Virus record (IMG/VR): IMGVR_UViG_3300034691_000069
Length of the DNA: 64,000 bases
Origin: a virus
Taxonomy: Duplodnaviria; Heunggongvirae; Uroviricota; Caudoviricetes
Strand: one strand, 5' to 3'
Part shown: positions 3,835 to 57,283 of the stretch, piece after piece
How the letters are laid out: every line of letters begins with the position of its first letter
How positions within the stretch are numbered: the stretch's first letter is position 1
Program-made: the position numbers and the translations under genes
Notes under the pieces: model-generated
The model's input: only the letters and a program-made list of their open reading frames with translations
Told to the model about the DNA's origin: nothing
Database searches by the model: none

Positions 3835-3895
3835 AAATCACCGAATAGGTCATTAAGATAGATACACAGTATAACAAAATTAAGAATTTTAGACA

Positions 3896-3925
3896 ACAAA
3901 AAAGAGATCCGAAGATCTCTTTTTG
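3896..3925. terminator. bidirectional rho-independent terminator (agagatcCGAAgatctct flanked by A-run and T-run)
   Basis: second copy of the conserved hairpin; flanked by runs on both sides. Confidence 0.55.
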
Positions 3926-4063
3926 TTATTGCTTCCCTTTGGGTGTATACAGCGTTTCGATTCCACTGTATGCCCGCTGGAATTGTTGCGAGGTCAACAT
4001 CACCTACTAAAGCCCGAGGAGGACGCTAATAATATAACAAGAAGCTTGAGATGTCAACAAATT

Positions 4064-5279: not shown

Positions 5280-5414
5280 TTACTCTGCGTCTTGATGACG
5301 ATTCCGGCGACGTTTCCGAAACTCGCTATCTTTTTTGTGATACTTAGCTTGTTCATTGTCTTTTTTCTTGCCACCGCGAAAACGTTCTTGTGCGTCACCG
5401 AAAGAGCCTTGCAT
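5280..5414 (-). CDS. small basic protein, 44 aa (MQGSFGDAQERFRGGKKKDNEQAKYHKKDSEFRKRRRNRHQDAE), copy 1 of 3
   Basis: ATG with AGGAGA RBS; promoter-like TTCTTGATATACT upstream (plus about 5468-5482); about 88-90% nt identity to copy at 12759-12893; below track cutoff. Confidence 0.55.
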   Translation of the reverse strand: MQGSFGDAQERFRGGKKKDNEQAKYHKKDSEFRKRRRNRHQDAE

Positions 5415-5663
5415 TTTGTATCTCCTAACCTATTAGTTTGTTTGTGTTGTTTCGTTTTGATGGGATAAGTATATCAAGAAGCGGTTTATCGGTCAATCAT
5501 TTTTTTTCAAAAAACTTCAAAACAACTTAACCCGCCACTCGTTCATATTTAACATGATATTCAATCATCGAAGCCGCCATGAAAAGAATCATACACAAGC
5601 CGAAAGAGCCAACAAGCCATAATGGAAAAGCTTCAACTGAGAACCACTCAAAAGGCTTGCACA

Positions 5664-5852
5664 TTAGAGGTCACCATCCGTGCAAAGAGAAGGCTCATCT
5701 TTATTCATCCACGATTCGATTTCTGCTTTGGATTCCCACTTTGAATGACCTTCACAGTCCACCAGCCGAACTTTTTCATCAGTTTGGTCAATAATGCGAA
5801 ACCATGCACCAAGACCATTGACATAAATTTGAGAATTTGGTGTGAACTTCAT
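5664..5852 (-). CDS. hypothetical protein (62 aa)
   Basis: ORF track. Confidence 0.4.
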   Translation of the reverse strand: MKFTPNSQIYVNGLGAWFRIIDQTDEKVRLVDCEGHSKWESKAEIESWMNKDEPSLCTDGDL

Positions 5853-5903
5853 GATAGATCTCCATTAGTAGAGTTTAATTATACCATAAAAGACATTTTT
5901 AAA

Positions 5904-6248
5904 TCAAGCTATCTCACGTTTACTCTTGAAATCGGCCAAGATGTTGTTAAATCGCTCAGATGCTTCTTTAATACCCAGAATATAAACACTGTTCAAGATA
6001 TTATATTCCTCAATAACATCAGACATAGAACTATGCAAAATACGATCACGCAAGAGTTTATAAACAGCAAACTGGTTGGTTCCCAGTTTTACATGGATTT
6101 CATAAGCAACTTGAAAGCAAGCTACTTTAAAATCACCGGGTTTATCTTCCACCAATCGACCAGACAGATCAGAAAAAGTAGCTTCCAACTCATTGGCTGC
6201 ATCATTAACAAAAACCATGTCAGACGGAGATACTGTAATTTCGACCAT
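5904..6248 (-). CDS. hypothetical protein
   Basis: ORF track. Confidence 0.5.
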   Translation of the reverse strand: MVEITVSPSDMVFVNDAANELEATFSDLSGRLVEDKPGDFKVACFQVAYEIHVKLGTNQFAVYKLLRDRILHSSMSDVIEEYNILNSVYILGIKEASERFNNILADFKSKREIA

Positions 6249-6327
6249 GATAACCTCAAATGTAATAGATGGATTTTCTAAGGGTGTATTTTATCACTTT
6301 TTTATTGTTTTTTCAATGAATATAAGA

Positions 6328-6936
6328 TTATATTGAATACATTTTCAAGAGTTCAACATGAGCAATGTCACTCTTTAAAAAATGTTTAAACTGAGAAAAG
6401 TAATCTTCTTCTGGCAAAATCTCTTTCAAATGAGTGTGCGTCATTAAATGATTGAAAACATAAAAAGCAGCACTATTGCTATCATTTAAATTAAATTGAC
6501 AATGCAATGCATCAGAATATAACAAGTAAATCACATCCTCTGAACCATCTGGTGTAATAGATTGATTGAGTATTACCTTATTTAAATCATTGCCAGTAAA
6601 TTCAAACCACAAATTATTACGGTAAAGGTTTCTATGATTCAGTTTTATTGAACTATTGATGGTGTTCAAATCAATAGCATAAGGAATTCTTTTTTTTCCT
6701 TCTTTTATAGAAATTGGCACTCTATTTCGAACAACTTTATTAAGTGCCGGATAACTATCAAAAAATCGCTCATCACCATTAGGCATAGTAATGACACAAT
6801 AACAGCCAACATCATCATAAGCCATTCTCATCGGCTTAAATACAGCACTCACACGATCCTGAAAGAAAAAGGCTTCTTTTTCTAAAAAAGATTCGGCTGA
6901 CGCCAATACATGGTCAGGAATAATGAGATCGCTCAT
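6328..6936 (-). CDS. hypothetical protein (AT-rich, N/K/I-rich composition)
   Basis: ORF track; compositional outlier versus neighbours. Confidence 0.5.
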   Translation of the reverse strand: MSDLIIPDHVLASAESFLEKEAFFFQDRVSAVFKPMRMAYDDVGCYCVITMPNGDERFFDSYPALNKVVRNRVPISIKEGKKRIPYAIDLNTINSSIKLNHRNLYRNNLWFEFTGNDLNKVILNQSITPDGSEDVIYLLYSDALHCQFNLNDSNSAAFYVFNHLMTHTHLKEILPEEDYFSQFKHFLKSDIAHVELLKMYSI

Positions 6937-7038
6937 GATAACACCTCTAAAATTATTCTTAGATTATAGCACACTTATTAAAAACAAAGCAAAAAATCCG
7001 ACAACTAGGCCGGATTATTGTTTGCTGTTTTTTACAGG

Positions 7039-7512
7039 TTATTGTTCTATCTTGTAAACATTATAGGGTTCAGTCGCTCTGAAAGAGCCTTGCTGTTTAA
7101 AGAACTTGAAATATTTTACGGCAATTTTATTGCTGGCCTTATTACTTTCATGAACAATGTAAATAAGGTTTTTGTGAATTTTAAGGAAATGTTCAACCAC
7201 CTGACTGGCATAGCCATTACCACGTTCTTTTTTCGCAATATAAATCATGCCAAGATTGAAATATTCATGCTCTAAACCCAATCTTTTTCTAAGCGAAAAG
7301 TGAACTTCATTGACATTAACAACCCCAACAATTCTATCACCGTCTTTGATGACAGTAACAGGGTGAGTGGTGATAATCGACCGAACTTCTTTAAAGGTCA
7401 ATCCAGCAGGGTCTGAATCTGCAGTGTATTTATTCCGCATGCATTGAAACACCAGTTTTACAATTTCTGGGTTTTCGGCTGGATTAGGATAAAGTTCGAT
7501 AGAAATCATGAT
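7039..7512 (-). CDS. GNAT-family N-acetyltransferase (start moved to internal Met MISIELYP...)
   Basis: acetyl-CoA-binding motif A (KKERGNGYASQVV) and motif B-like region; promoter attatatcaaaaaa at plus about 7538-7551. Confidence 0.55.
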   Translation of the reverse strand: MMISIELYPNPAENPEIVKLVFQCMRNKYTADSDPAGLTFKEVRSIITTHPVTVIKDGDRIVGVVNVNEVHFSLRKRLGLEHEYFNLGMIYIAKKERGNGYASQVVEHFLKIHKNLIYIVHESNKASNKIAVKYFKFFKQQGSFRATEPYNVYKIEQ

Positions 7513-7610
7513 AAACCTGTCATTTGGTTGATGACCTATTATATCAAAAAACAAAAGGATGGGCAATAAAAAACCGTCAAAATGGCGGCTTAATAACAAC
7601 AAAAAACAGA

Positions 7611-7826
7611 TTAATCATTGGCGTCTTGAGCGTCTTCAAAGGATTCGTAATAACCATCAGCCTCAAAAAAATAACAGGCTTGAAGGAAACGATCCTGATC
7701 GGGATAGCTGTAACTACTGATTTCAGCATAACCCATACTGCCATCAGCACGCTTACGGTAATAAGTCTTACGGATTTCTTCATGCATGGAATATAGCCTC
7801 TTTAAATGGTTGACTAGACTTAGCAA
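7611..7826 (-). CDS. hypothetical acidic protein (71 aa)
   Basis: ORF track. Confidence 0.4.
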   Translation of the reverse strand: MLSLVNHLKRLYSMHEEIRKTYYRKRADGSMGYAEISSYSYPDQDRFLQACYFFEADGYYESFEDAQDAND

Positions 7827-8149
7827 TAAGCAAACAAATTTTTGTCGTTTTTAAGTTCGTGCAAGATAAAAAACCGATACTGACTGTCAATACAATTGAA
7901 GAATTCAAGCAAGTTTCGACGGCACTCAATCACAAATTTTTCAGCTAAATGCTCTCCAAGTTGTTTACCAAACAAATAAACCAACAAGTTTCCATTCATT
8001 TTATTAGACAGTTGAAGAAGTTCAACTACTTGGTCAGAATATTGAAAAGAACCATCACCTTTCAGATTTTTCTCATAATCTGGAAAATTGCCTACTGCAC
8101 GGTCTACAAATGTTTGATACCGAGACGACAATTCAACATTATTAGTCAT
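7820..8149 (-). CDS. hypothetical protein
   Basis: ORF track. Confidence 0.5.
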   Translation of the reverse strand: MTNNVELSSRYQTFVDRAVGNFPDYEKNLKGDGSFQYSDQVVELLQLSNKMNGNLLVYLFGKQLGEHLAEKFVIECRRNLLEFFNCIDSQYRFFILHELKNDKNLFAYC

Positions 8150-8365
8150 AGAAAGATTCCTTTTTTGAATGGTATTATGATAACAAAAAAAGTAATTAAT
8201 GTAAAGCTGTATATTTTATAAACAAAAAACCCCGTATCAACGGGGTTTTCATATCATCTTAATTAAATTTTCTGATTTAGTTTAAGGTCATAGCTGCATC
8301 GGTAGTTCACCTCGGGCACTCGATTAGATTATCTAGTGGTTAATGTTATTTTCAATCTTTCAATC

Positions 8366-8442
8366 TGGTGGGACTTACAGGACTTGAACCTGTGACCTGC
8401 CGATTATGAGTCGGTTGCTCTAACCAACTGAGCTAAAGTCCC
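8366..8442 (-). tRNA. tRNA-Met (or lysidine-Ile) anticodon CAU, CCA encoded
   Basis: minus-strand read GGGACUUUAGCUCAGUUGGUUAGAGC...CUCAUAA...GGUUCAAGUCC...AAGUCCCACCA folds as canonical cloverleaf (7-bp acceptor, D-arm, CAU anticodon loop, T-loop UUCAAGU). Confidence 0.8.
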
Positions 8443-8708: not shown

Positions 8709-8792
8709 TGGTGCCCGAGGCCGGACTCGAACCGGCACTCCGTAAGGAAGGGGATTTTAAGTCCCCCGCGTCTACCATTCCACCACTCGGGC
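8709..8792 (-). tRNA. tRNA-Leu anticodon UAA (long variable arm), CCA encoded
   Basis: minus-strand read GCCCGAGUGGUGGAAUGGUAGAC...CUUAAAA...long variable arm...GGUUCGAGUCCGGCCUCGGGCACCA; class II tRNA. Confidence 0.8.
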
Positions 8793-9085
8793 TTAATATG
8801 ATATGGACTACTCTATTTATATCTGCACCGAGTAGTGTTCCATACTTACAAGCTATATTGGTAACCGAAGTTATTATTCCAAAACAAGCTACTTGTAAGA
8901 AGTGCTGGTTTATTCTGGCAAGATGTTTGTTTCTCCGTTTCGTCTTGATGGGGTAATTATAGAGAAAATCGCTGTGAAGGTCAAGCATTTTTTTAGCTTA
9001 TTTTTCAAATACTTACATCAAAAATATATTGACAAAACAAAAAAAAGACCTACTGATATAGGTCTTGATGACATAAAAGAAGGTT

Positions 9086-12704: not shown

Positions 12705-12758
12705 TAAAGAAAGACTTAAGCAAGAAAGCAGTAGACTGGCTACTGCTTAGCTGGTTGA

Positions 12759-12893
12759 TTACTCTGCGTCTTGGTGACGGTTACGACGACGATTTCGAAA
12801 TTCGTTATCTTTTTTGTGAAATTTTGCTTGTTCATTGTCTTTTTTCTTGCCGCCACGAAAACGTTCTTGTGCGTCACCGAAAGAGCCTTGCAT
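12759..12893 (-). CDS. small basic protein, 44 aa (MQGSFGDAQERFRGGKKKDNEQAKFHKKDNEFRNRRRNRHQDAE), copy 2 of 3
   Basis: near-identical to 5280..5414; preceded by conserved 5'-UTR hairpin element (12927-12977) and promoter CTTTGATATACT (about 12988-13000). Confidence 0.55.
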   Translation of the reverse strand: MQGSFGDAQERFRGGKKKDNEQAKFHKKDNEFRNRRRNRHQDAE

Positions 12894-12926
12894 TTTTTGT
12901 ATCCTTTTTGACTGATTTAATTAAGT

Positions 12927-12977
12927 GAGCAATTGCAAGGGTAAAGGCTTACTGGTTTGCTCGACCCTTGCTGCTTC
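12927..12977 (-). promoter_or_regulatory. conserved 5'-UTR stem-loop element copy A (stem GCAAGGGU/ACCCUUGC, 21-nt loop) between promoter and small basic protein gene
   Basis: about 50-nt block about 85% identical to 43332-43383; stem differs by a compensatory pair (U-A versus G-C). Confidence 0.55.
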
Positions 12978-13031
12978 AACGTGGTTAGTATATCAAAGGT
13001 AATGAACCAAGACAAGCTTTTTTAAGAGGTC

Positions 13032-31124: not shown

Positions 31125-32246
31125 TTACTCGGGGATAGGCACTTGTTTACGAGCAAACACCATGATAGCGGCTTGTTTGTAATCAATTTCATCACCCGAA
31201 AACTTGCTCATCAACACCGACAGAAGCAATGGAGCCACTTCTTTGGCTTTACGAGCGTAATCGCCACGTTCCAAACCTTTATGCTCATCGTAGAAGCTGT
31301 CAACCGTGCGAACAAGGTAATGGTAGCTTTTACGGGCGTAGTCTTCGACTTCATCCAAGCGAGCCAGAATTTCAGCCAGTGGGAAATTATCGCTGTGTGT
31401 CCGGTAGTGATACAACGAACGGATTTCATCCAGAATTTCATGAAGGGTTGCTTCATAAATAACCTGACGTTCCTTCGAACGATCCTGAATGTTGACCACT
31501 GCCGACATTTTCAGGTAAGGAATGGTCTTGACCTTATACATGTCAGGGCCGATTTCAATCACATAACCTTCGATATCGGGGTCATTCACGTTGATTTCAT
31601 TAACGGGAATACGCTTCACCAGATGGGCAGCAATGACCGGATATTCTGCGGCAAATTCTGCCGAACGAATGTCCACATAAGCCCCTGTGTTCATGTCGCG
31701 GGCTTTCAACACATGAACTTCGTAGGTAGTGTATTCGATGAAAACACGGTTTTTCGGCGTGGTCAGTTCCAAGTCAACCGAAACACCTGTGCGGGTCAGC
31801 CGTTCAACGTCTGCGTGCAATTCTGGACTGATAGACTGTTCAACAAGGCCGTAATCAGCAAACGTAGGCTTCTTTTTACTCTTGTAGTAAAGAGTATCAT
31901 TGATCGGAGAAATATAGCTGGTGAGCAACGAGCCATCGGGTTTCAGATAAGCATGGTCGGCTTCTTCTGGCTTCACCTTTTGCGTTTCAGGGGTTTCGCC
32001 CAAGGAAAAGAATTTCTGCATTGGCAATGCCACCAGCATTGGCTCAGAACCGCCCATATAGAACATGACACCACGGCAATCCTTAGCACCCGGAAGTTTG
32101 AATTCGGAATGCTTTGGAATGTCATAGTTGAAGACACGGTAAGTCCCGCCGTCTACCGCCGAGATTTCATCACGGTATTTGAAAGACCCCGGATTAGTCA
32201 CCAGCAGGTGCATCAGTTGGGCATACAGTTCTTGTTGATAAGTCAT
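31125..32246 (-). CDS. rnlA: RNA ligase 1 (T4 gp63/Rnl1 homolog); start taken at second Met (GGAG RBS)
   Basis: similarity to T4 Rnl1 including YR(V/I)F.Y...LP...CRG(V/I)MF, nucleotidyltransferase motif I KPDGSL and motif IV EGYVI; antisense 373-aa track ORF is a shadow. Confidence 0.8.
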   Translation of the reverse strand: MTYQQELYAQLMHLLVTNPGSFKYRDEISAVDGGTYRVFNYDIPKHSEFKLPGAKDCRGVMFYMGGSEPMLVALPMQKFFSLGETPETQKVKPEEADHAYLKPDGSLLTSYISPINDTLYYKSKKKPTFADYGLVEQSISPELHADVERLTRTGVSVDLELTTPKNRVFIEYTTYEVHVLKARDMNTGAYVDIRSAEFAAEYPVIAAHLVKRIPVNEINVNDPDIEGYVIEIGPDMYKVKTIPYLKMSAVVNIQDRSKERQVIYEATLHEILDEIRSLYHYRTHSDNFPLAEILARLDEVEDYARKSYHYLVRTVDSFYDEHKGLERGDYARKAKEVAPLLLSVLMSKFSGDEIDYKQAAIMVFARKQVPIPE

Positions 32247-32302
32247 GTGAATCTCCATGATTAAATTGTCTGAATCTATTATATCAAAAACTGATTTTTA
32301 AT

Positions 32303-33216: not shown

Positions 33217-34338
33217 TTAAACGGGAGCGGACAAGTCGCCAAGCTCAATTTGTTCCAACGACCAATCAACCAGATGGTTTTTAGAGTAGTGATACAGGTA
33301 GTCGTTTTTGTGACCACGAATTGCCCCCATAACAAAACCAAAGTGTTTGTGGCCTTTGAGTTGGATTGCTGCAGTTTTCACGTCAACACCTTGGAATGCA
33401 GCAGCAATATCATCAACCTCTTTCGACAACGCTTCAATCGAAGCTTTGATAGCGTCATTGATACGATAAATTTCACTCAAATCAGCCGTTGGCGAGTTTA
33501 GCGACAAATAAGCAATGTAATCATCAAGTTTTTCTTCGACCACCAAACGAGCAATATCACGTTCACGAACAAAGCTAACCGCATGATGGAGATTCATATA
33601 CCATTTGGTTTTGATTTTGATCATGTTACCGTTAACGAATTGAATAACATAGCCTTCAATCCCTTCAACCGTGTTCAGCGACTTCAAAAGGGAAGCCAAA
33701 TCAAATTCTTCACCAAACAGTGGCTTGTTAACAGGAATATCAAACAACAACGCCAGTTGGTCTTTTTCAGCAGGCATTAAGTAATCGCCTGTGATGTTGT
33801 GACGAACATGAAGCAATGTCATGTTGTCTTCGTCATAACGCAAAACGATACGATGCTTTGGCGAAGTGAATTCAAAAATTGGCGTCAGTTGGGCCTGAGA
33901 GCAATATTTGGTGAACTCGTAGTATTTCTGGTTACGAGAGACAAAGCCTTCTGCCGAAACAGCCACATCCGATTTGAAAGACTTCTTGGACTTAGCAAAG
34001 AATTCGCCTTTGAACAGACCTGTGGTAATCATGGAGCCATCCATTTTATCAAACCCGGCAACCATAGTGTTCCAATCCAAAACGGCTGGCTGGACTTCTG
34101 CACGCTCTGCCAAGTTGAAGAATTTGTGCAATGGACGCGACAGTATTTTACCGTTGTCGTCAAAGGTAATACCGCGAGCTTCCTTTTCAACCGGAGTGTT
34201 GAAAGAGTCACCGTTGCTGATGTTGTAGCAAACGATGTCGGCACCGTTATCCTGTTTGTTAACAGAAATATAGGCACGGTCTTTGATATGAGGAATCATA
34301 TCATCAAGGGTTTCAATACGGGGGAAGATGCTGGACAT
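33217..34338 (-). CDS. second Rnl1-family RNA ligase (paralog of rnlA, diverged)
   Basis: EARGITFDDNGKILSRPLHKFFNL (cf. T4 Rnl1 ECRGIMFEMDG...RPMEKFFNL), motif I KMDGSM, motif IV GIEGYVIQF...IKIKTKWY. Confidence 0.7.
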   Translation of the reverse strand: MSSIFPRIETLDDMIPHIKDRAYISVNKQDNGADIVCYNISNGDSFNTPVEKEARGITFDDNGKILSRPLHKFFNLAERAEVQPAVLDWNTMVAGFDKMDGSMITTGLFKGEFFAKSKKSFKSDVAVSAEGFVSRNQKYYEFTKYCSQAQLTPIFEFTSPKHRIVLRYDEDNMTLLHVRHNITGDYLMPAEKDQLALLFDIPVNKPLFGEEFDLASLLKSLNTVEGIEGYVIQFVNGNMIKIKTKWYMNLHHAVSFVRERDIARLVVEEKLDDYIAYLSLNSPTADLSEIYRINDAIKASIEALSKEVDDIAAAFQGVDVKTAAIQLKGHKHFGFVMGAIRGHKNDYLYHYSKNHLVDWSLEQIELGDLSAPV

Positions 34339-40539: not shown

Positions 40540-40662
40540 ATGAAAGTTCAAAACTTCGTAGCAAAACACATGAACACCGTCAATAAAGCGGCTACTCATG
40601 TTGACAAGAAACGCAAAGACAAAAACAAACGCGATAAGCGTGCTTACCTCAAGGAGATGTAA
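40540..40662 (+). CDS. small highly basic protein, 40 aa (MKVQNFVAKHMNTVNKAATHVDKKRKDKNKRDKRAYLKEM)
   Basis: strong GAGGTG RBS; own promoter; terminator aaaaggtgtcttaggacaccttttttt at about 40686-40712; below track cutoff. Confidence 0.5.
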   Translation: MKVQNFVAKHMNTVNKAATHVDKKRKDKNKRDKRAYLKEM

Positions 40663-41454: not shown

Positions 41455-42009
41455 TTAGACTACGGTCAGAACACCTTCTTCGTCAATTGTGTAACCCAAT
41501 TTTGCCACGGCATCAAAAGCTTCTTTCAGTTGACGTTGACGAAATTCCTGATGATCTTCATTAGTCAATTCCAGCTTAGTCACAATGATTTTAACATCAT
41601 CAGTCAAAGTGGCCCAACGTTGGTTTTTGACAGGTTCTTTTGGGTAATAACGAATATCAGAACCTTTAATAACCAGCGTATTGTTTTTCATGTGTTCATC
41701 AATCATGTAATCAAGCGTTGCCGTAGAAATTTCAGCGTAAGGTTTCTCATGCTTGAGTTCCAAAACACCAGCATCCGCCAAACGATTTCCCAAATGACAA
41801 CCTTCCTCTGTCAACTCGGTTGAACTAACAGAGATAGCCATACCAACTGGACCAACAATGTAATTGATCAAGTATTTATAGTGAGGTGCCGCATTAGTGT
41901 GTTGCAAAGCAGCTACGATCTTTTCCAGCTTCAACTGAACCGACAATACCGCATTGACTGCAGACTGAGCATCTTTTGCATTGTTCAAATTGATTTTAAC
42001 TTGAGTCAT
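41455..42009 (-). CDS. paralog family C member (184 aa), related to 28202..28777
   Basis: shared VIKGSDIRYYPKEP...W.TLTDDVKIIVTKL block. Confidence 0.55.
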   Translation of the reverse strand: MTQVKINLNNAKDAQSAVNAVLSVQLKLEKIVAALQHTNAAPHYKYLINYIVGPVGMAISVSSTELTEEGCHLGNRLADAGVLELKHEKPYAEISTATLDYMIDEHMKNNTLVIKGSDIRYYPKEPVKNQRWATLTDDVKIIVTKLELTNEDHQEFRQRQLKEAFDAVAKLGYTIDEEGVLTVV

Positions 42010-42073
42010 GATGGTGTATCCTTTATGTCGTTATGATGGGGTTATTTTACCAAAAAACTGGATTATAGTCTAG

Positions 42074-42484
42074 TCATTTCTTCATTCCATCCAAAACCCA
42101 TTGTTCCCATTTATGGACACGGGGAAGGCATGAAAACAAAGCTTCTCGATAATCTTTATGAGTCAATTCCTGATCGAATCGGACATGAGCCAAATGATTT
42201 AAGTCAATCACGTCTTTTTGAACAATATTGAGATCGATGATGTCACAACCACTGACAGTGAAAACATGCTCTTGATTGCCCACTAAACGGCCACCAAACA
42301 GGTTACGAGCGAGCAAAGCAGCAAACTTACAGCTACCAGAGCGATCACCCGTATAAGTAATACCACGCTCAGCACAGCGTTCTTCCCACATAAAATCCAA
42401 TGCAATATTAGCACGAATCATGTTATGTTCGGTGTAGGCTATTTTAGCTGGATAAACACTGCGAATGTCTTTAACTGTGAGCAT
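42074..42484 (-). CDS. hypothetical protein (possible Cys/His catalytic pair GSCKFAAL...QEHVF; unassigned)
   Basis: ORF track. Confidence 0.45.
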   Translation of the reverse strand: MLTVKDIRSVYPAKIAYTEHNMIRANIALDFMWEERCAERGITYTGDRSGSCKFAALLARNLFGGRLVGNQEHVFTVSGCDIIDLNIVQKDVIDLNHLAHVRFDQELTHKDYREALFSCLPRVHKWEQWVLDGMKK

Positions 42485-42563
42485 TTTAAGCGGCCTTCAA
42501 ATCAATTAATGACTGAATTATACACGTTAGCCCATTAAAAGACAATAAAAAACTTAAAAATGA

Positions 42564-42863
42564 TTACGAATGAACATCCAAAATGGTTTCGCAATCTTTA
42601 ACCATTAACGCCATGTCAGCCTTAATGCTTTCAATTTTGGCGAGATCCTTTTCTTTCACTTTATCGATCCAGATTTCAAAGCTATTGCGATAACTTTTCT
42701 TCAAGCTTTCAAAACCATTCACCAGTTGAGCCAGCGAAAGACCTTTGCGATAAAGGAACAGGCGACCACTCCACTCATAAGCGGTATAACCATTAGCTTC
42801 AAAAACCAGTTTATAGGATTCGTGAATAACGGCTTTGGTGGGTGCTGCAGTATGATAAGGCAT
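42564..42863 (-). CDS. hypothetical protein
   Basis: ORF track. Confidence 0.5.
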   Translation of the reverse strand: MPYHTAAPTKAVIHESYKLVFEANGYTAYEWSGRLFLYRKGLSLAQLVNGFESLKKSYRNSFEIWIDKVKEKDLAKIESIKADMALMVKDCETILDVHS

Positions 42864-42958
42864 GATTGACCTCCAAAATTTGTTAAATTATACCATAAAA
42901 TTTAAAAAAGATAAACAAAAAACCCGCACGAAGCGGGCTTTTTTTAAGCTGTCTACTG

Positions 42959-43297
42959 TTAATAGTAGCTACGGTTATACAGGCGGTTAGTCGTGCGACG
43001 AAGCTGTTCTTCAAACACCCGACGTTGACCACTGGACAAGCAACGGTCTTTGCTGGTTTCGATGCTGGCAATACGCTTTTGGAACATTTGATTGGCTCGC
43101 TGGGCTTCTTTTTGAGAGTCAGCAAACCGAACATCAGTTGCACGGCGAATATAGGCATTTTGAGCTTGTTTGTCCGCATTCACGATGCACTTGCGTTCAA
43201 TTTGACGTTCTTTATAGGAGCCATACTGGCCCGAAGACACACAGCCAGTCATCATTACAAGGGCAAGAGCAGCAAAAACAATTTTCATTACTTTCAT
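42959..43297 (-). CDS. lipoprotein (lipobox MMTGC), basic coiled-coil-like
   Basis: ORF track; preceded by conserved 5'-UTR hairpin element copy B. Confidence 0.55.
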   Translation of the reverse strand: MKVMKIVFAALALVMMTGCVSSGQYGSYKERQIERKCIVNADKQAQNAYIRRATDVRFADSQKEAQRANQMFQKRIASIETSKDRCLSSGQRRVFEEQLRRTTNRLYNRSYY

Positions 43298-43331
43298 GGT
43301 CGTATCCTTCTCGTATCAATTAAGGTCGAAT

Positions 43332-43383
43332 GAGCAACTGCAAGGGGAAAGGCTTATTGGCTTGCTCGCCCCTTGCTGCTTCG
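43332..43383 (-). promoter_or_regulatory. conserved 5'-UTR stem-loop element copy B (stem GCAAGGGG/CCCCUUGC)
   Basis: about 85% identical to 12927-12977; sits between promoter ATTGATATAAT (plus about 43392-43405) and lipoprotein gene. Confidence 0.55.
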
Positions 43384-43408
43384 ATGGAGTAATTATATCA
43401 ATATCGAC

Positions 43409-43783
43409 CTAGATAATCAAGGTTTTTGGTGAACTTCTTTCAATGAGTTCGCAAAAAAAGAAGGTCATAAATTTGAGTTTTTTCCAAAAACCTTTTGGAG
43501 AAAATTGAGAACTGTGATAGGTATACAAAGTATTTCCTTTCCAATGGTCAATCACCATACCACCACGAAAAATCATCAGAGTGACTGAGTTATAATCATA
43601 CTTGTAGTAAGTGACTTTACCAGAAACCGGATGAATGACGGGCTGACTGGTTGATTTGCTAAACTTAATTCTGGCTCCAACTCTATTACATTTATTCTTG
43701 CTGAAATATTCAACAGGCAAAGAATAACCAAGATTCATGCCAACCAGAAATCGCATCAACAAAATTTGAAAGAAGATTAACAT
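43409..43783 (-). CDS. membrane-anchored hypothetical protein
   Basis: ORF track; N-terminal TM. Confidence 0.5.
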   Translation of the reverse strand: MLIFFQILLMRFLVGMNLGYSLPVEYFSKNKCNRVGARIKFSKSTSQPVIHPVSGKVTYYKYDYNSVTLMIFRGGMVIDHWKGNTLYTYHSSQFSPKGFWKKLKFMTFFFCELIERSSPKTLII

Positions 43784-43786
43784 ATT

Positions 43787-44191
43787 TTATTCCTTAATGT
43801 AGCAACGTTTAACGATTTTAAGGGCTTTTTTAACTTCTTTTTCCCATTCTTTATCACTGACCTCAACGAGCGTTCTGACAAAGGCCAGAGCTTTTGTTTC
43901 GTCCAAACCTAACACAAGGTCTTCATCACTTTCATCAAGTGCTACGATAGGTGGATAGGCTCCATCAATGTCGATTTGACAACCATCCAGAGACAACCAT
44001 GCATGTTCGATATTTTTTATCGACAAATCATCTTCTGTGAGAATTTGAATTTCACCGCCAAATGTTCGCCACAAAGCGACCGCCAGAAAAATAGATTTTG
44101 CAGACAGGTATTCTTCTGAGAGTTCATTAGGAACGCTGTCTTTAATTTGTTTAATCATGGGAACACTCCAAGTAGGCTTTGAGTATAGCAA
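43787..44191 (-). CDS. hypothetical protein
   Basis: ORF track. Confidence 0.5.
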   Translation of the reverse strand: MLYSKPTWSVPMIKQIKDSVPNELSEEYLSAKSIFLAVALWRTFGGEIQILTEDDLSIKNIEHAWLSLDGCQIDIDGAYPPIVALDESDEDLVLGLDETKALAFVRTLVEVSDKEWEKEVKKALKIVKRCYIKE

Positions 44192-44206
44192 AACCTTAGA
44201 AATAAA

Positions 44207-44671
44207 TCAATCTTGAACGTAGTTTTTGAAGGGTTTTAGCCTGTCTTTTTGATAATGCTTAAACTTCCCAATAGTAATATGTCCTTGGTCTGTCCCCAAC
44301 ACGTTATAGTATTCACGAATTTTAAAAAACTCGGCTGAATAACAGTTTATCCACACATGGGAATCATTCCAGAACAATTCATGGGTGTAATGCAGTTCAA
44401 CAGGTTGCTGGTCAAGCCAACCCCACGGCTTAGACGTGTCGGTATTGGTATATCCTTTCAGCACTGAGCAATGAACATCCCAGTTAGGCTTATCCAACTC
44501 TATGCCATACCGTTGATAAAACTGATGGCGATAGTAAGCCGCGATATCTGGTTCTATCGTGATAACAGCCCAATGTTCAATGTTTTTCTTCATGGTGCCA
44601 CGGTCGGGGTCGTAAACAATAGTCCCTTCCGTGTTAAATTGAAGACAACGGTGTCTAAGTTGTAAGTTCAT
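44207..44671 (-). CDS. hypothetical protein
   Basis: ORF track. Confidence 0.5.
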   Translation of the reverse strand: MNLQLRHRCLQFNTEGTIVYDPDRGTMKKNIEHWAVITIEPDIAAYYRHQFYQRYGIELDKPNWDVHCSVLKGYTNTDTSKPWGWLDQQPVELHYTHELFWNDSHVWINCYSAEFFKIREYYNVLGTDQGHITIGKFKHYQKDRLKPFKNYVQD

Positions 44672-51487: not shown

Positions 51488-52153
51488 TTATGGTGAAACA
51501 GGCTCTCTACATATTTGATTATAGTAGTAATCCAAGCGATTTTGTTCACTAAATGTGTAATTCATCATAAACGTTCCGCGTGTATAAACATAGCCAGCAC
51601 TTACAAAAGTTGCTGTTTTAGGAGATGTTGTTGTTGTTGTTATATTACTCTTGATAGTAGTTCCCTTCCACATGATTAGCGAACCATAAGTAGTAGTGTA
51701 AGCAGGCCAATTAGTTTGAGCAGCGTCAGCCCAAAATGTATTGCCAACGGTATAACCACATTCTTTAACTATTTTAGACCCAACAGCATTAACAGTATAA
51801 GAAGCATCAGTTAATAATTTAGTTTCTTTGGTATCCACAGAATTACGAATAACCCCAGAAACAGTATTTTTTTCTGATGTTGTCATTATTCGCTCTTGGG
51901 CCTGATGACAGCCAGAAAATGTTTTCACATAAGTAATGCCAAGGGGTTGCGTGTTTTCAAGTGGATTTTCACTTCCACAATCATATGGACTGCCAATATT
52001 TAACCAATTAGTGTAGGTAGGTTCATTCTGAATCCACTGACCAAGATTTTTAAAACTAATAGGGACATTTGGATATTGAACAATATAAGTTGCATAAGAA
52101 GATGTACATAATACTGAGAAAATTGATATAGCAAGATTTTTTTTGAAGTTCAT
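51488..52153 (-). CDS. secreted Cys-repeat family protein (one W...SP.DC...P.EN...G..Y.KTFSGC.Q.QER..TTSEK.TV.G.IRN module + C-terminal domain)
   Basis: signal peptide; module matches 52252..53289 and 10188..11054. Confidence 0.6.
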   Translation of the reverse strand: MNFKKNLAISIFSVLCTSSYATYIVQYPNVPISFKNLGQWIQNEPTYTNWLNIGSPYDCGSENPLENTQPLGITYVKTFSGCHQAQERIMTTSEKNTVSGVIRNSVDTKETKLLTDASYTVNAVGSKIVKECGYTVGNTFWADAAQTNWPAYTTTYGSLIMWKGTTIKSNITTTTTSPKTATFVSAGYVYTRGTFMMNYTFSEQNRLDYYYNQICREPVSP

Positions 52154-52251
52154 AGTCTTTTTTTATTTTTGTTGTTATTATTATAATACAAAAAAATTTA
52201 TATTCTGTCAAAGATAAAAACAAAAAGAAGCCTAAGCTTCTTTTCTTTTTG

Positions 52252-53289
52252 TTATGGTGTAACAGGTTCTCTACAGACTTCATAATAGTAGTAAAAAGTG
52301 CGTATATTATCATTATGACCAGATTTCTCTTTAAACGCACCGCGTGTGTAAACATAGCCAGATTTGACATAATTAGCAGATTTTGGATAAGTTGTGCTGC
52401 TGTTTGCAGTGTTAACAAGTGTGGCACCAGCCCATTGTAAGCCCATACCATAAGTAGTTGTATAACCATCATAAGTTGCAATATCATACCATCTAGCAAA
52501 AGCTCCACTTGCTGCTGAATATCCACATTCTTTAACTATTTTAGTGCCTGTCGCATTTGTAGTATAAGTGGCATCAGTAATAAGCTGAGTTTCCTTCGTT
52601 GTTTTCACGTTACGAACATTGCCTGTAACAGTATTCTTTTCAGATGTCGTAACATCACGCTCTTGTGATTGTTTACAACCAGAAAATGTTTTTACATAAG
52701 TTGAACCAAGTGTTTGTGTGTTTTCAAGTGGTGCAGCACTTGTGCAATCATGTGGAGATTCAAGGTTTCTCCAACCTGTATAAACTGGAGCAGTTTCTAA
52801 CCATTGACCAAAATCGGTAGTGCCAATAGCATTTACTTTGTAACTAGCGTCAGTTAACACCTGTGTTTCTTTGGTGCTGACTTGATTACGAATAGCTCCA
52901 GTAACAGTTTGTTTTTCAGAAGTGGTTACAGTTCTTTCTTGGGATTGCTTACAACCCGAGAATGTTTTTTCATAAGACACACCAAGTTGTTGTGTATTCT
53001 CAAGTGGTGCAGCACTTGTACAATCATGTGGAGTTCCCACATTAACCCAAATAGAGATGACAGGATTCGTTGGAACCCATTGACCAAGATCTTTAAAGAT
53101 TACAGGAACATTTGGATATTGTATTTGATATTCTGCGAAAGAATTCATTCCTAACAATGAAAGTACAGGAACTAAGAGTATTTTTTTAATGGACATGATT
53201 TTTATTATTATTATTAATACTATAATACAAGTGGTTTTATATTGTGTCAATTTATTGTTATATAAAATTACTTTTTTTTTACCATACAA
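52252..53289 (-). CDS. secreted Cys-repeat family protein (two tandem modules + C-terminal domain); true start probably internal Met MSIKKILL
   Basis: signal peptide; duplicated 90-aa module; tandem to 51488..52153. Confidence 0.6.
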   Translation of the reverse strand: MYGKKKVILYNNKLTQYKTTCIIVLIIIIKIMSIKKILLVPVLSLLGMNSFAEYQIQYPNVPVIFKDLGQWVPTNPVISIWVNVGTPHDCTSAAPLENTQQLGVSYEKTFSGCKQSQERTVTTSEKQTVTGAIRNQVSTKETQVLTDASYKVNAIGTTDFGQWLETAPVYTGWRNLESPHDCTSAAPLENTQTLGSTYVKTFSGCKQSQERDVTTSEKNTVTGNVRNVKTTKETQLITDATYTTNATGTKIVKECGYSAASGAFARWYDIATYDGYTTTYGMGLQWAGATLVNTANSSTTYPKSANYVKSGYVYTRGAFKEKSGHNDNIRTFYYYYEVCREPVTP

Positions 53290-57063: not shown

Positions 57064-57133
57064 GCTGTATGATGGGATTCGAACCCACGACTACCGTTTT
57101 TCGACGGAGTTCTGCCGACTGAACTACAAACAG
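57064..57133 (-). tRNA. tRNA-like element with canonical acceptor/D/T arms but aberrant anticodon arm (3-4 bp stem, 6-8 nt loop UCGAAAAA); no encoded CCA
   Basis: minus-strand read CUGUUUG-UA-GUUC-AGUCGGCA-GAAC-...-GUGGG-UUCGAAU-CCCAU-CAUACAG; T-loop GGUUCGAAUCC perfect. Confidence 0.45.
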
Positions 57134-57151: not shown

Positions 57152-57283
57152 TTATTCGTTAACGTGACGATCACGACGCTTCTTTCGCCAGTTCTTGTCT
57201 TGCTCATGAGTTTTTGCTTTTTCTGTGTCACGTTTTTTGCCACCACGGAAACGTTCTGTTGCGTCACCAAATGAACCTTGCAT
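57152..57283 (-). CDS. small basic protein, 43 aa (MQGSFGDATERFRGGKKRDTEKAKTHEQDKNWRKKRRDRHVNE), copy 3 of 3 (diverged); track ORF over-extended upstream
   Basis: homologous to 5280..5414 and 12759..12893; internal ATG with AAGG RBS. Confidence 0.5.
   Translation of the reverse strand: MQGSFGDATERFRGGKKRDTEKAKTHEQDKNWRKKRRDRHVNE

Follow-up and report, generated by a model that had tools for sequence, protein, structure and literature searches.

A Covarying Leader Hairpin With a Sequence-Constrained Apical Loop in Very Large Phage-Like Genomes: A Candidate Family of cis-Acting Leader RNAs

Introduction

Between the promoter and the ribosome-binding site of a putative lipoprotein gene, the window (the whole stretch of 64,000 nt analysed here) carries a 52-nt segment which an earlier note, made from the letters of the DNA, had described as the second copy of a covarying 5'-UTR element. 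Is this segment an RNA structure, how far does it extend beyond this locus, and what might it do in the transcripts that it heads? To answer these questions, the two copies in the window were compared with their relatives in metagenomic contigs, and the predicted structure, its position and its flanks were weighed against known leader RNAs.

The Leader of the Lipoprotein Gene

The genes in this part of the window all lie on the minus strand, and the features of the locus are collected in Table 1. The range given by the earlier note, 43332..43383, was one base off (the element runs from 43382 to 43331) and otherwise exact. A promoter and a ribosome-binding site were found on the two sides of the element by sequence reading and a consensus scan, in the places where the note had put them. 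Since the upstream ORF ends at 43409, the element is intergenic. It is followed by a 21-nt A/U-rich tail and then by the Shine-Dalgarno (SD) sequence. The ORF behind it starts with MKVMKIVFAALALVMMTGC, in which a lipobox-like site (M-T-G-C) comes after a signal peptide, in agreement with the lipobox protein described before, and its match to Pfam LPAM_1 was weak (E = 0.06). The next gene after the lipoprotein unit has a promoter-like TATAAT box of its own, which is absent from the consensus-scan list.

Table 1. Positions of the two element copies and of the associated features in the window.
Feature	Position	Strand	Basis or remark
-35 TTGATT, copy 2 promoter	43415..43420	-	consensus scan 10/12, 17-nt spacer
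Extended -10 TG-a-TATAAT, copy 2	43392..43400	-	TATAAT = 43397..43392; sigma-70-type
String ACUCCAUC between -10 and copy 2 element		-	sequence read
Predicted transcription start, copy 2	A at 43385	-	7 nt 3' of -10; from spacing only
Element copy 2, 52 nt, GAAGCAGCAAGGGGCGAGCAAGCCAAUAAGCCUUUCCCCUUGCAGUUGCUCA	43382..43331	-	BLAST, covariance model
Hairpin core, copy 2	43334..43379	-	MFE fold, RNAalifold, covariance model
P1, copy 2	GCA 43379..43377 x UGC 43336..43334	-	MFE fold, pair counts
3-nt bulge, copy 2	43339..43337	-	3' side
P2, copy 2	GCAAGGGG 43376..43369 x CCCCUUGC 43347..43340	-	8 bp
Conserved apical 'loop', copy 2	43348..43368	-	21 nt
Optional helix P0, copy 2	UUCGA 43330..43326 x UCGAA 43384..43380	-	possible pairing
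3' tail, copy 2	43319..43333	-	CUUAAU motif at 43324..43319
SD AAGGA, lipoprotein gene	43309..43305	-	sequence read
ATG, lipoprotein gene	43297..43295	-	sequence read
Putative lipoprotein ORF, 112 aa, behind copy 2	42959..43297	-	ORF list
Intrinsic terminator closing lipoprotein unit	42917..42943	-	strong; 11-bp stem then T-run
Element copy 1	12977..12926	-	BLAST of leader against window
Hairpin core, copy 1	12929..12974	-	covariance model, 79.8 bits
Copy 1 promoter TTGTCT-17-TATACT	-35 13015..13010, -10 12992..12987	-	promoter scan
44-aa Lys/Arg-rich basic ORF behind copy 1	12893..12759	-	ORF
Three 44-aa protein paralogues	5283-5414, 12762-12893, 57164-57283	-	sequence MQGSFGDAQERFRGGKKKD…RNRRRNRHQDAE

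Two Copies in the Window

When the window was searched with the leader by BLAST, 47 of the 52 positions matched copy 1 on the minus strand without a gap (E = 4e-13 in the window), and the description as a second copy holds. A covariance model, R1, was then built from nine versions of the element and run with filters off on both strands of the 64 kb. Copies 2 and 1 scored 88.0 and 79.8 bits, respectively. As the next best score was just 12.4 bits, the window contains exactly two copies, which are far from chance. The two differ at five positions: two of these make up a compensatory exchange of G-C to U-A in the stem, and the other three are unpaired in the P1/P2 model. Copy 1 is identical at 52/52 positions in the relative L004, whose flanks are about 89% identical.

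Copy 1 heads the gene of a 44-aa basic protein with no Pfam match. A terminator-like hairpin follows this gene at 12748..12726, and the promoter scan scored none before 12082. The protein occurs in the window as three paralogues, and the hairpin leader belongs to the middle one only; the leaders of the other two, with starts near 5414 and 57283, are ordinary and lack the element. The differing leaders indicate that leaders were swapped as modules. The 44-aa protein is kept in every element-bearing lineage sampled. Speculatively, it is a candidate RNA-binding protein, with its arginine-rich C-terminus (…RNRRRNRHQ).

Three tRNA genes were found in the window, at 8369-8442, 8712-8792 and 57064-57133 (minus), the third directly 3' of a 44-aa paralogue. 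The segment from the tRNA cluster to the first 44-aa gene measures about 3 kb in the window (5481-8366) and about 11.5 kb in L015; this region is hypervariable.

Distribution in Related Genomes

Relatives of the locus were collected by look-ups of exact proteins and by a homology search with the lipoprotein, which gave syntenic metagenomic contigs of 70-99% identity. A degenerate DNA pattern added more copies in JGI metagenome contigs and one in a 290-kb IMG/VR contig. The model scan of all fetched loci gave 19 distinct versions of the element from related metagenomic contigs. The element heads five unrelated families of ORFan genes: the lipoprotein (A), the 44-aa basic protein (B, with the element upstream in the window's lineage and L004 only), an ORF of about 241 aa (C), an ORF of about 177 aa (D), and a membrane protein of about 150 aa (E/F). 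Nine lipoprotein homologues of 70-92% identity were found, and all of their upstream regions that were examined carry the element. A homologue of D with 52% identity sits inside an operon and is without it. Individual genomes hold two to three or more copies each; L038 has three within 20 kb, and a 1.86 Mb contig has three pattern matches. Families C, D and E/F had no match in the window by tblastn at the thresholds used.

Searches of the general databases returned little. At gathering thresholds, Rfam 15 found three tRNAs only in the whole window and left the element unmatched. With the 161-nt region and E<=10, a spurious plant miRNA match was the only result (12.8 bits vs a gathering score of 64). 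GenBank phages gave no match to the 2 kb around the locus (megablast), to the element (blastn), or to the lipoprotein and a 415-aa neighbour (tblastn), and two scans of GTDB species genomes gave 0 element matches. In IMG/VR, three strict patterns had 0 matches, a permissive pattern found one true relative (L020, the 290-kb contig), and a search through the membrane protein brought back only the already known contig. Thirteen loci obtained with a variable-gap pattern (L021-L033) were discarded as a chance match in widespread coding sequence with no stem. Moreover, neither Pfam nor PHROGs gave anything informative for the downstream genes and the large neighbours.

All element sequences stem from one clade, and the small hairpin family is restricted to this clade of very large phage-like genomes. 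Part of its conservation could reflect shared descent or the recombinational spread of cassettes. The carriers are almost wholly uncharacterised, with genes that are nearly all ORFans, and a covariance model of the element could serve to tag members of the lineage in metagenomes.

Four independent assemblies contain contigs of 1.84-1.92 Mb with regions that are syntenic with the window, among them Ga0370506_000001 (L005; 1,917,244 bp) and Ga0308158_10000001 (L013/L016; 1,859,102 bp), with proteins P0002 and P0007. The largest phage genome found in our literature search has 841 kb (bioRxiv 10.1101/2025.01.14.633092). The window and all fetched loci look phage-like, with ORFans, T4-type RNA ligases, tRNAs, promoter/terminator cassettes and almost no Pfam or PHROG matches, and the molecule of about 1.9 Mb may be either a virus-like genome or a bacterial chromosome. 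Two genes of T4 Rnl1-type RNA ligases lie about 1 kb apart at 31125-32258 and 33217-34338 (minus), with matches to Pfam RNA_lig_T4_1 at E = 2e-7 and 3e-27. In the GenBank phage searches, matches were obtained with the RNA ligase only, and these were distant, the best being 42% identical, in the Ralstonia jumbo phage RsoM2USA. A 40-aa ORF at 40540-40662 (+) matches Pfam DUF7230 and keeps the same position in all syntenic loci.

Across the window, dozens of repeated intergenic modules (families D1-D20) join a terminator with a GC stem and a GAAG loop to a TTG…TATAAT promoter, for example at 2091-2167, 3853-3929, 5449-5506, 8937-8994 and 42885-42922, and resemble PeSL cassettes (PMC2839356). In addition, direct repeats of 81-165 nt with 62-77% identity (D2, D10) occupy 51752-53050, in and next to a 345-aa ORF (52252-53289) whose protein has no Pfam or PHROG match.

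Structure and Covariation of the Hairpin

The alignment of the 19 sequences (A4) was used to test a structure of 11 pairs, which consists of a 3-bp P1, a 3-nt bulge on the 3' side and an 8-bp P2. Standard pairs were formed in 99.5% of the 209 cells. Four pairs of P2 change on both sides, as in the loop-closing pair, which is G-C, A-U or U-A, and a fifth alternates between G-C, A-U and G·U, so that 5/8 P2 pairs vary. Among 500 column shuffles, none matched the observed covariation score or the percentage paired. When the 3' partners were slid by 1-3 columns as a control, the pairing fell to 50-63%. These results bear out the covariation claimed in the earlier note, and the 17 additional distinct versions on other contigs greatly strengthen that claim.

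The G·U pairs further indicated the strand. In all of them (31/31 cells), the 5' arm contributes the G and the 3' arm the U. As the opposite strand would have A·C mismatches at these places, the helix is selected in the gene-sense RNA, which also fits the 5'-UTR placement proposed before. The element is therefore an RNA structure, and not one of duplex DNA or of an antisense transcript.

The window is full of PeSL-like cassettes that shuffle ORFans (PMC2839356), and the 44-aa paralogues without the hairpin show that leaders were swapped. Both would suit a DNA-level feature, such as an inverted repeat or cruciform, or the relic of a mobile promoter cassette without an RNA function. We regard such an origin as highly improbable. 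The 31 one-way G·U cells rule out symmetric recognition of duplex DNA. Repeated independent compensatory changes and a conservation well above that of the flanking non-coding DNA also speak against it, as do the promoter spacers of the paralogous copies, which are unrelated and mark these copies as not recent duplicates.

RNAalifold returned the same helices and added a helix P3 of four pairs within the loop (G·U, A-U, G-C and C-G, with a bulged pyrimidine). With P3 present, the apical loop shrinks to 10 nt, A-NNNN-ARUAA. As the P3 pairs never vary, covariation neither supports nor contradicts P3; double-sided covariation was absent from P1, P3 and P0 alike. The stability of the hairpin ranged from -18 to -8.5 kcal/mol. 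The G·U-rich versions of one lineage have z values of about 0 against shuffles and still keep the invariant loop, and such weak versions would fit a site stabilised by a protein.

One copy folds differently. In L015 (8906-8990), the loop CAAUAAGC and the sequence GCUUAUUG directly 3' of P1 are fully complementary, and the MFE fold favours this alternative loop pairing. The gene C downstream of this copy looks truncated or frameshifted. In L015, and in the matching part of L016, the hypervariable segment next to the tRNA cluster holds genes C and D, with a separate copy of the hairpin in front of each.

Sequence Constraint in the Apical Loop

The apical region has the consensus C-GAGC-A-NNNN-A-R-UAAG-Y-CUUU, in which only the N positions, R and Y vary. 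Across the 19 versions of A4 and the five gene contexts, 17/21 apical columns are invariant. Mean pairwise identities were calculated by region from eight distinct versions of the lipoprotein locus. They amounted to 0.49 upstream of the -10, 0.83 in the stems, 0.85 in the loop, 0.59 in the tail between hairpin and SD, and 0.97 in the SD-ATG segment. Because the loop is invariant while P2 varies, the apical region must be constrained in sequence and not by structure alone. Read from these alignments, such conservation is the probable signature of recognition by a specific partner. A trans partner complementary to the loop was sought in the window and none was found, the exact matches being the antisense strands of the element itself.

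Position of the Element and Its 3' Tail

The element begins at a fixed 13 nt after the -10 in all contexts (TATAAT-N3-CCAUC-GAAGC…), so that P1 starts at about +7 of the predicted RNA. Between the hairpin end and the AUG lie 18 to 45 nt, depending on the copy. After the -10, the string CCATC(G/A)A was also present in window promoters without the hairpin, and being general to the promoters of this genome, it is not part of the element. Promoters that share TATA(A/C)T-N3-CCCATCAA(A/G)AC lie on the minus strand at 5473, 8961, 28171, 54478 and other places. This suggests that the shared initial transcribed string is a conserved discriminator or start-site region which is independent of the hairpin.

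Masking of the ribosome-binding site was considered as a function. Sequestration of the SD by the pyrimidine-rich 3' arm or by the loop was rejected, since the predictions were inconsistent between copies: the predicted SD/AUG pairing spanned 0.19 to 0.77 and 0.03 to 1.0, and there was no common alternative fold. The fixed distance from the promoter, the variable distance to the AUG and the inconsistent pairing of SD/AUG together argue for recognition of the hairpin itself and against a switch that masks the ribosome-binding site. A terminator scan of 41500..44500 did not call the hairpin, and the stem is followed by CAGUUGCUCAUUCGAC, with no U-tract.

The conserved sequence around a helix in a 5' UTR, and the sharing of this leader by several unrelated genes, would suit a small riboswitch or another ligand-sensing leader. 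This is nevertheless scarcely a plausible identity for the element. There was no Rfam match even at E<=10, the single hairpin has no junction or supported pseudoknot, no consistent expression platform was found in the form of a terminator or SD masking, and the downstream ORFans have no metabolic or transport theme.

The hairpin lies very near the predicted 5' end, which raises the question of whether it is a passive 5'-terminal stabiliser against RNase E/RppH decay or an RNase III processing site that needs no dedicated factor. In the lipoprotein and membrane-protein contexts, UCGA/UCGA could pair at +2 to +6 to form P0, and the helices total about 15-20 bp with bulges, comparable to phage RNase III sites. 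A P0 helix of at least 4 bp was possible in 14/19 versions compared with 54% of background windows, which was not significant overall, and six 5' nucleotides would be unpaired where P0 is absent. Several copies are thermodynamically weak. Furthermore, 17 invariant loop bases beside a freely covarying P2 are left unexplained by a stabiliser or a processing site, and we consider this account distinctly unlikely.

An exact CTTA (CUUA, mostly CUUAA(U)) was found within 24 nt after P1 in 12/19 versions and in all five contexts, compared with 7.3% of background windows. A pseudoknot between UAAG of the loop and CUUA of the tail was considered and judged unlikely: its register varies between copies, P3 uses the same G, and the 3-nt linker of several copies is too short to bridge some 15 bp of helix.

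The tails were also compared with the lambda boxA CGCUCUUA. Two copies matched at 7/8 positions (background 0.2%), and 8/19 tails matched at 6/8 or more (background 4.7%), with copy 2 among the six at 6/8. One tail agreed at 10/12 positions with an extended 12-nt rrn boxA string (background 0.1%). The boxA-like string varies among the copies (UGCUC, UGCAC, UGCCA and UGCAA).

These observations bear on processive antitermination of the nut/put kind, in which the hairpin, acting alone or together with a small basic protein and with host Nus factors bound to the boxA-like tail, would modify RNA polymerase so that it reads through the many intrinsic terminators of the region. The element sits at a fixed place just past early promoters regardless of the AUG distance and is found in 2-3 or more copies per genome, as nutL/nutR and putL/putR are; taken together, the fixed promoter distance and the boxA-like tails fit a role directed at RNA polymerase at least as well as control of mRNA lifetime and/or translation. 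The region is packed with terminators, and the gene of copy 1 is followed by a terminator-like hairpin. The 44-aa Arg-rich protein encoded behind this copy recalls ARM proteins, lambda N among them. On the other hand, the hairpin resembles neither boxB, with its 5-bp stem and pentaloop, nor the two-hairpin put RNA, and the boxA-like string is not conserved between copies. There is no evident need for read-through at the lipoprotein unit, which has a strong terminator and is followed by a gene with a TATAAT of its own, and genes C and D in L016 are followed by promoters and not by terminators. Antitermination is unlikely in our estimate. A more specific form would make the hairpin with its boxA-like tail the RNA half, and the 44-aa Arg-rich protein the protein half, of a new antitermination system of the N/nut type in a phage-like genome of megabase scale, which we find very doubtful. 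If it were true, the one 44-aa paralogue behind the hairpin would be autoregulated, and the system would decide which early units pass the dense array of terminators.

Proposed Function

The best reading of the sequences is that the element represents a new cis-acting leader RNA family of early phage-like transcripts. As a cis-regulatory RNA family, it is well supported by 19 versions in five contexts with multiple compensatory changes. Transcription would start from a sigma-70-type early promoter at a predicted site about 7 nt 5' of the element, and the nascent RNA would fold into the 3-bp P1, the 3-nt bulge and the 8-bp P2 below the sequence-invariant apical region. In each genome the module heads 2-3 or more transcripts, in front of ORFan genes that are unrelated to one another.

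The invariant apical region may form the docking site of a sequence-specific trans-acting factor, most likely an RNA-binding protein from the same genome or from the host. Such a factor would subject these few early transcripts to shared control after initiation. It is quite possible, and is put forward here tentatively, that the bound protein controls the lifetime of these mRNAs and/or their translation. The element would then mark a small co-regulated set of early transcripts, and its invariant apical loop could be used as bait for the regulator. If it acted on RNA polymerase instead, phage antitermination RNAs would gain a third type beside nut and put.

Comparison With Known Systems

One comparison is with the nut sites of lambda and the leaders of rrn operons. 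BoxB is a short hairpin with a stem of about 5 bp and a GNRA-like pentaloop bound by the ARM protein N, and the boxA of nut is a single-stranded CGCUCUU(U)A that adjoins the hairpin. As in lambda nut and rrn leaders, an RNA element lies just past early promoters in few copies per genome, and a short single-stranded motif, which is boxA-like in some copies, comes after a hairpin. Lambda-type nut sites cause downstream terminators to be read through in a manner that depends on N and Nus factors, and the terminators around the element copies give a mixed picture. Unlike the 5-bp stem and pentaloop of boxB, the hairpin described here has 8+3 bp and an apical region of 21 nt, and there is no sequence similarity. 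The boxB sequence agcccugaaaaagggc has no counterpart in the element, which sets it apart from a lambda-type boxB (PMC2724277). The 9-nt rrn boxA, the lambda boxA consensus and the hairpin-then-boxA order of rrn leaders were taken from the same source (PMC2724277). The lambda N system also differs in that no N-like protein was identified here.

The put RNA of HK022 consists of two consecutive stem-loops of about 70 nt which act on RNA polymerase without protein factors. It shares with the element a promoter-proximal, cis-acting structured RNA at two early units, in copies that have sequence and covarying stems in common. By contrast, the element has one conserved hairpin and no conserved structure in the tail.

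Phage translational operators include the hairpin of T4 gene 43 (loop AAUAACUC), the pseudoknot of the gene 32 leader and the coat-protein hairpins of MS2/PP7. The classical ones overlap or abut the ribosome-binding site, and the gene under control is mostly that of the binding protein. A hairpin in the mRNA leader with a conserved loop sequence is common to these operators and the element, but the latter keeps a fixed distance from the promoter, with 18-45 nt between it and the AUG, and is found ahead of five unrelated genes. The resemblance of the apical AAUAAG to the T4 gene 43 loop is superficial only.

Intrinsic terminators combine a G+C-rich hairpin and a short loop with an immediate U-tract. 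The hairpin, uncalled in the scan and without a U-tract, is not a terminator or attenuator of this type. A riboswitch couples a ligand-binding aptamer to an expression platform (a terminator or SD sequestration); the element has no Rfam match, no terminator and inconsistent predicted pairing of SD/AUG, and is therefore unlikely to be one. Stabilisers of the ompA type leave almost no 5' nucleotides unpaired and have no requirement for a loop sequence. They are likewise stem-loops at or near the mRNA 5' end, but about 6 nt are unpaired here unless P0 forms (counted from the predicted start), and the loop is invariant. A mimic of the GTPase centre of 23S rRNA, with which the element presumably shares the words GAAGCAGC…UGCUCA, was dropped after Rfam rRNA models gave no match.

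PeSL cassettes of T4-type phages carry strong sigma-70-like early promoters, flank ORFans in hyperplastic regions and are exchanged between loci (PMC2839356). In these cassettes, a G/C-tract stem-loop that is placed upstream of the promoter, within it or overlapping it serves as terminator or attenuator (PMC2839356). The element resembles them as a small conserved regulatory module in a window rich in promoter-terminator cassettes, but its hairpin lies 3' of the -10 and inside the transcript, without a T-run and with a sequence-invariant loop. As it is neither a PeSL stem-loop nor a member of an Rfam family, we class the element as a new family of leader RNA.
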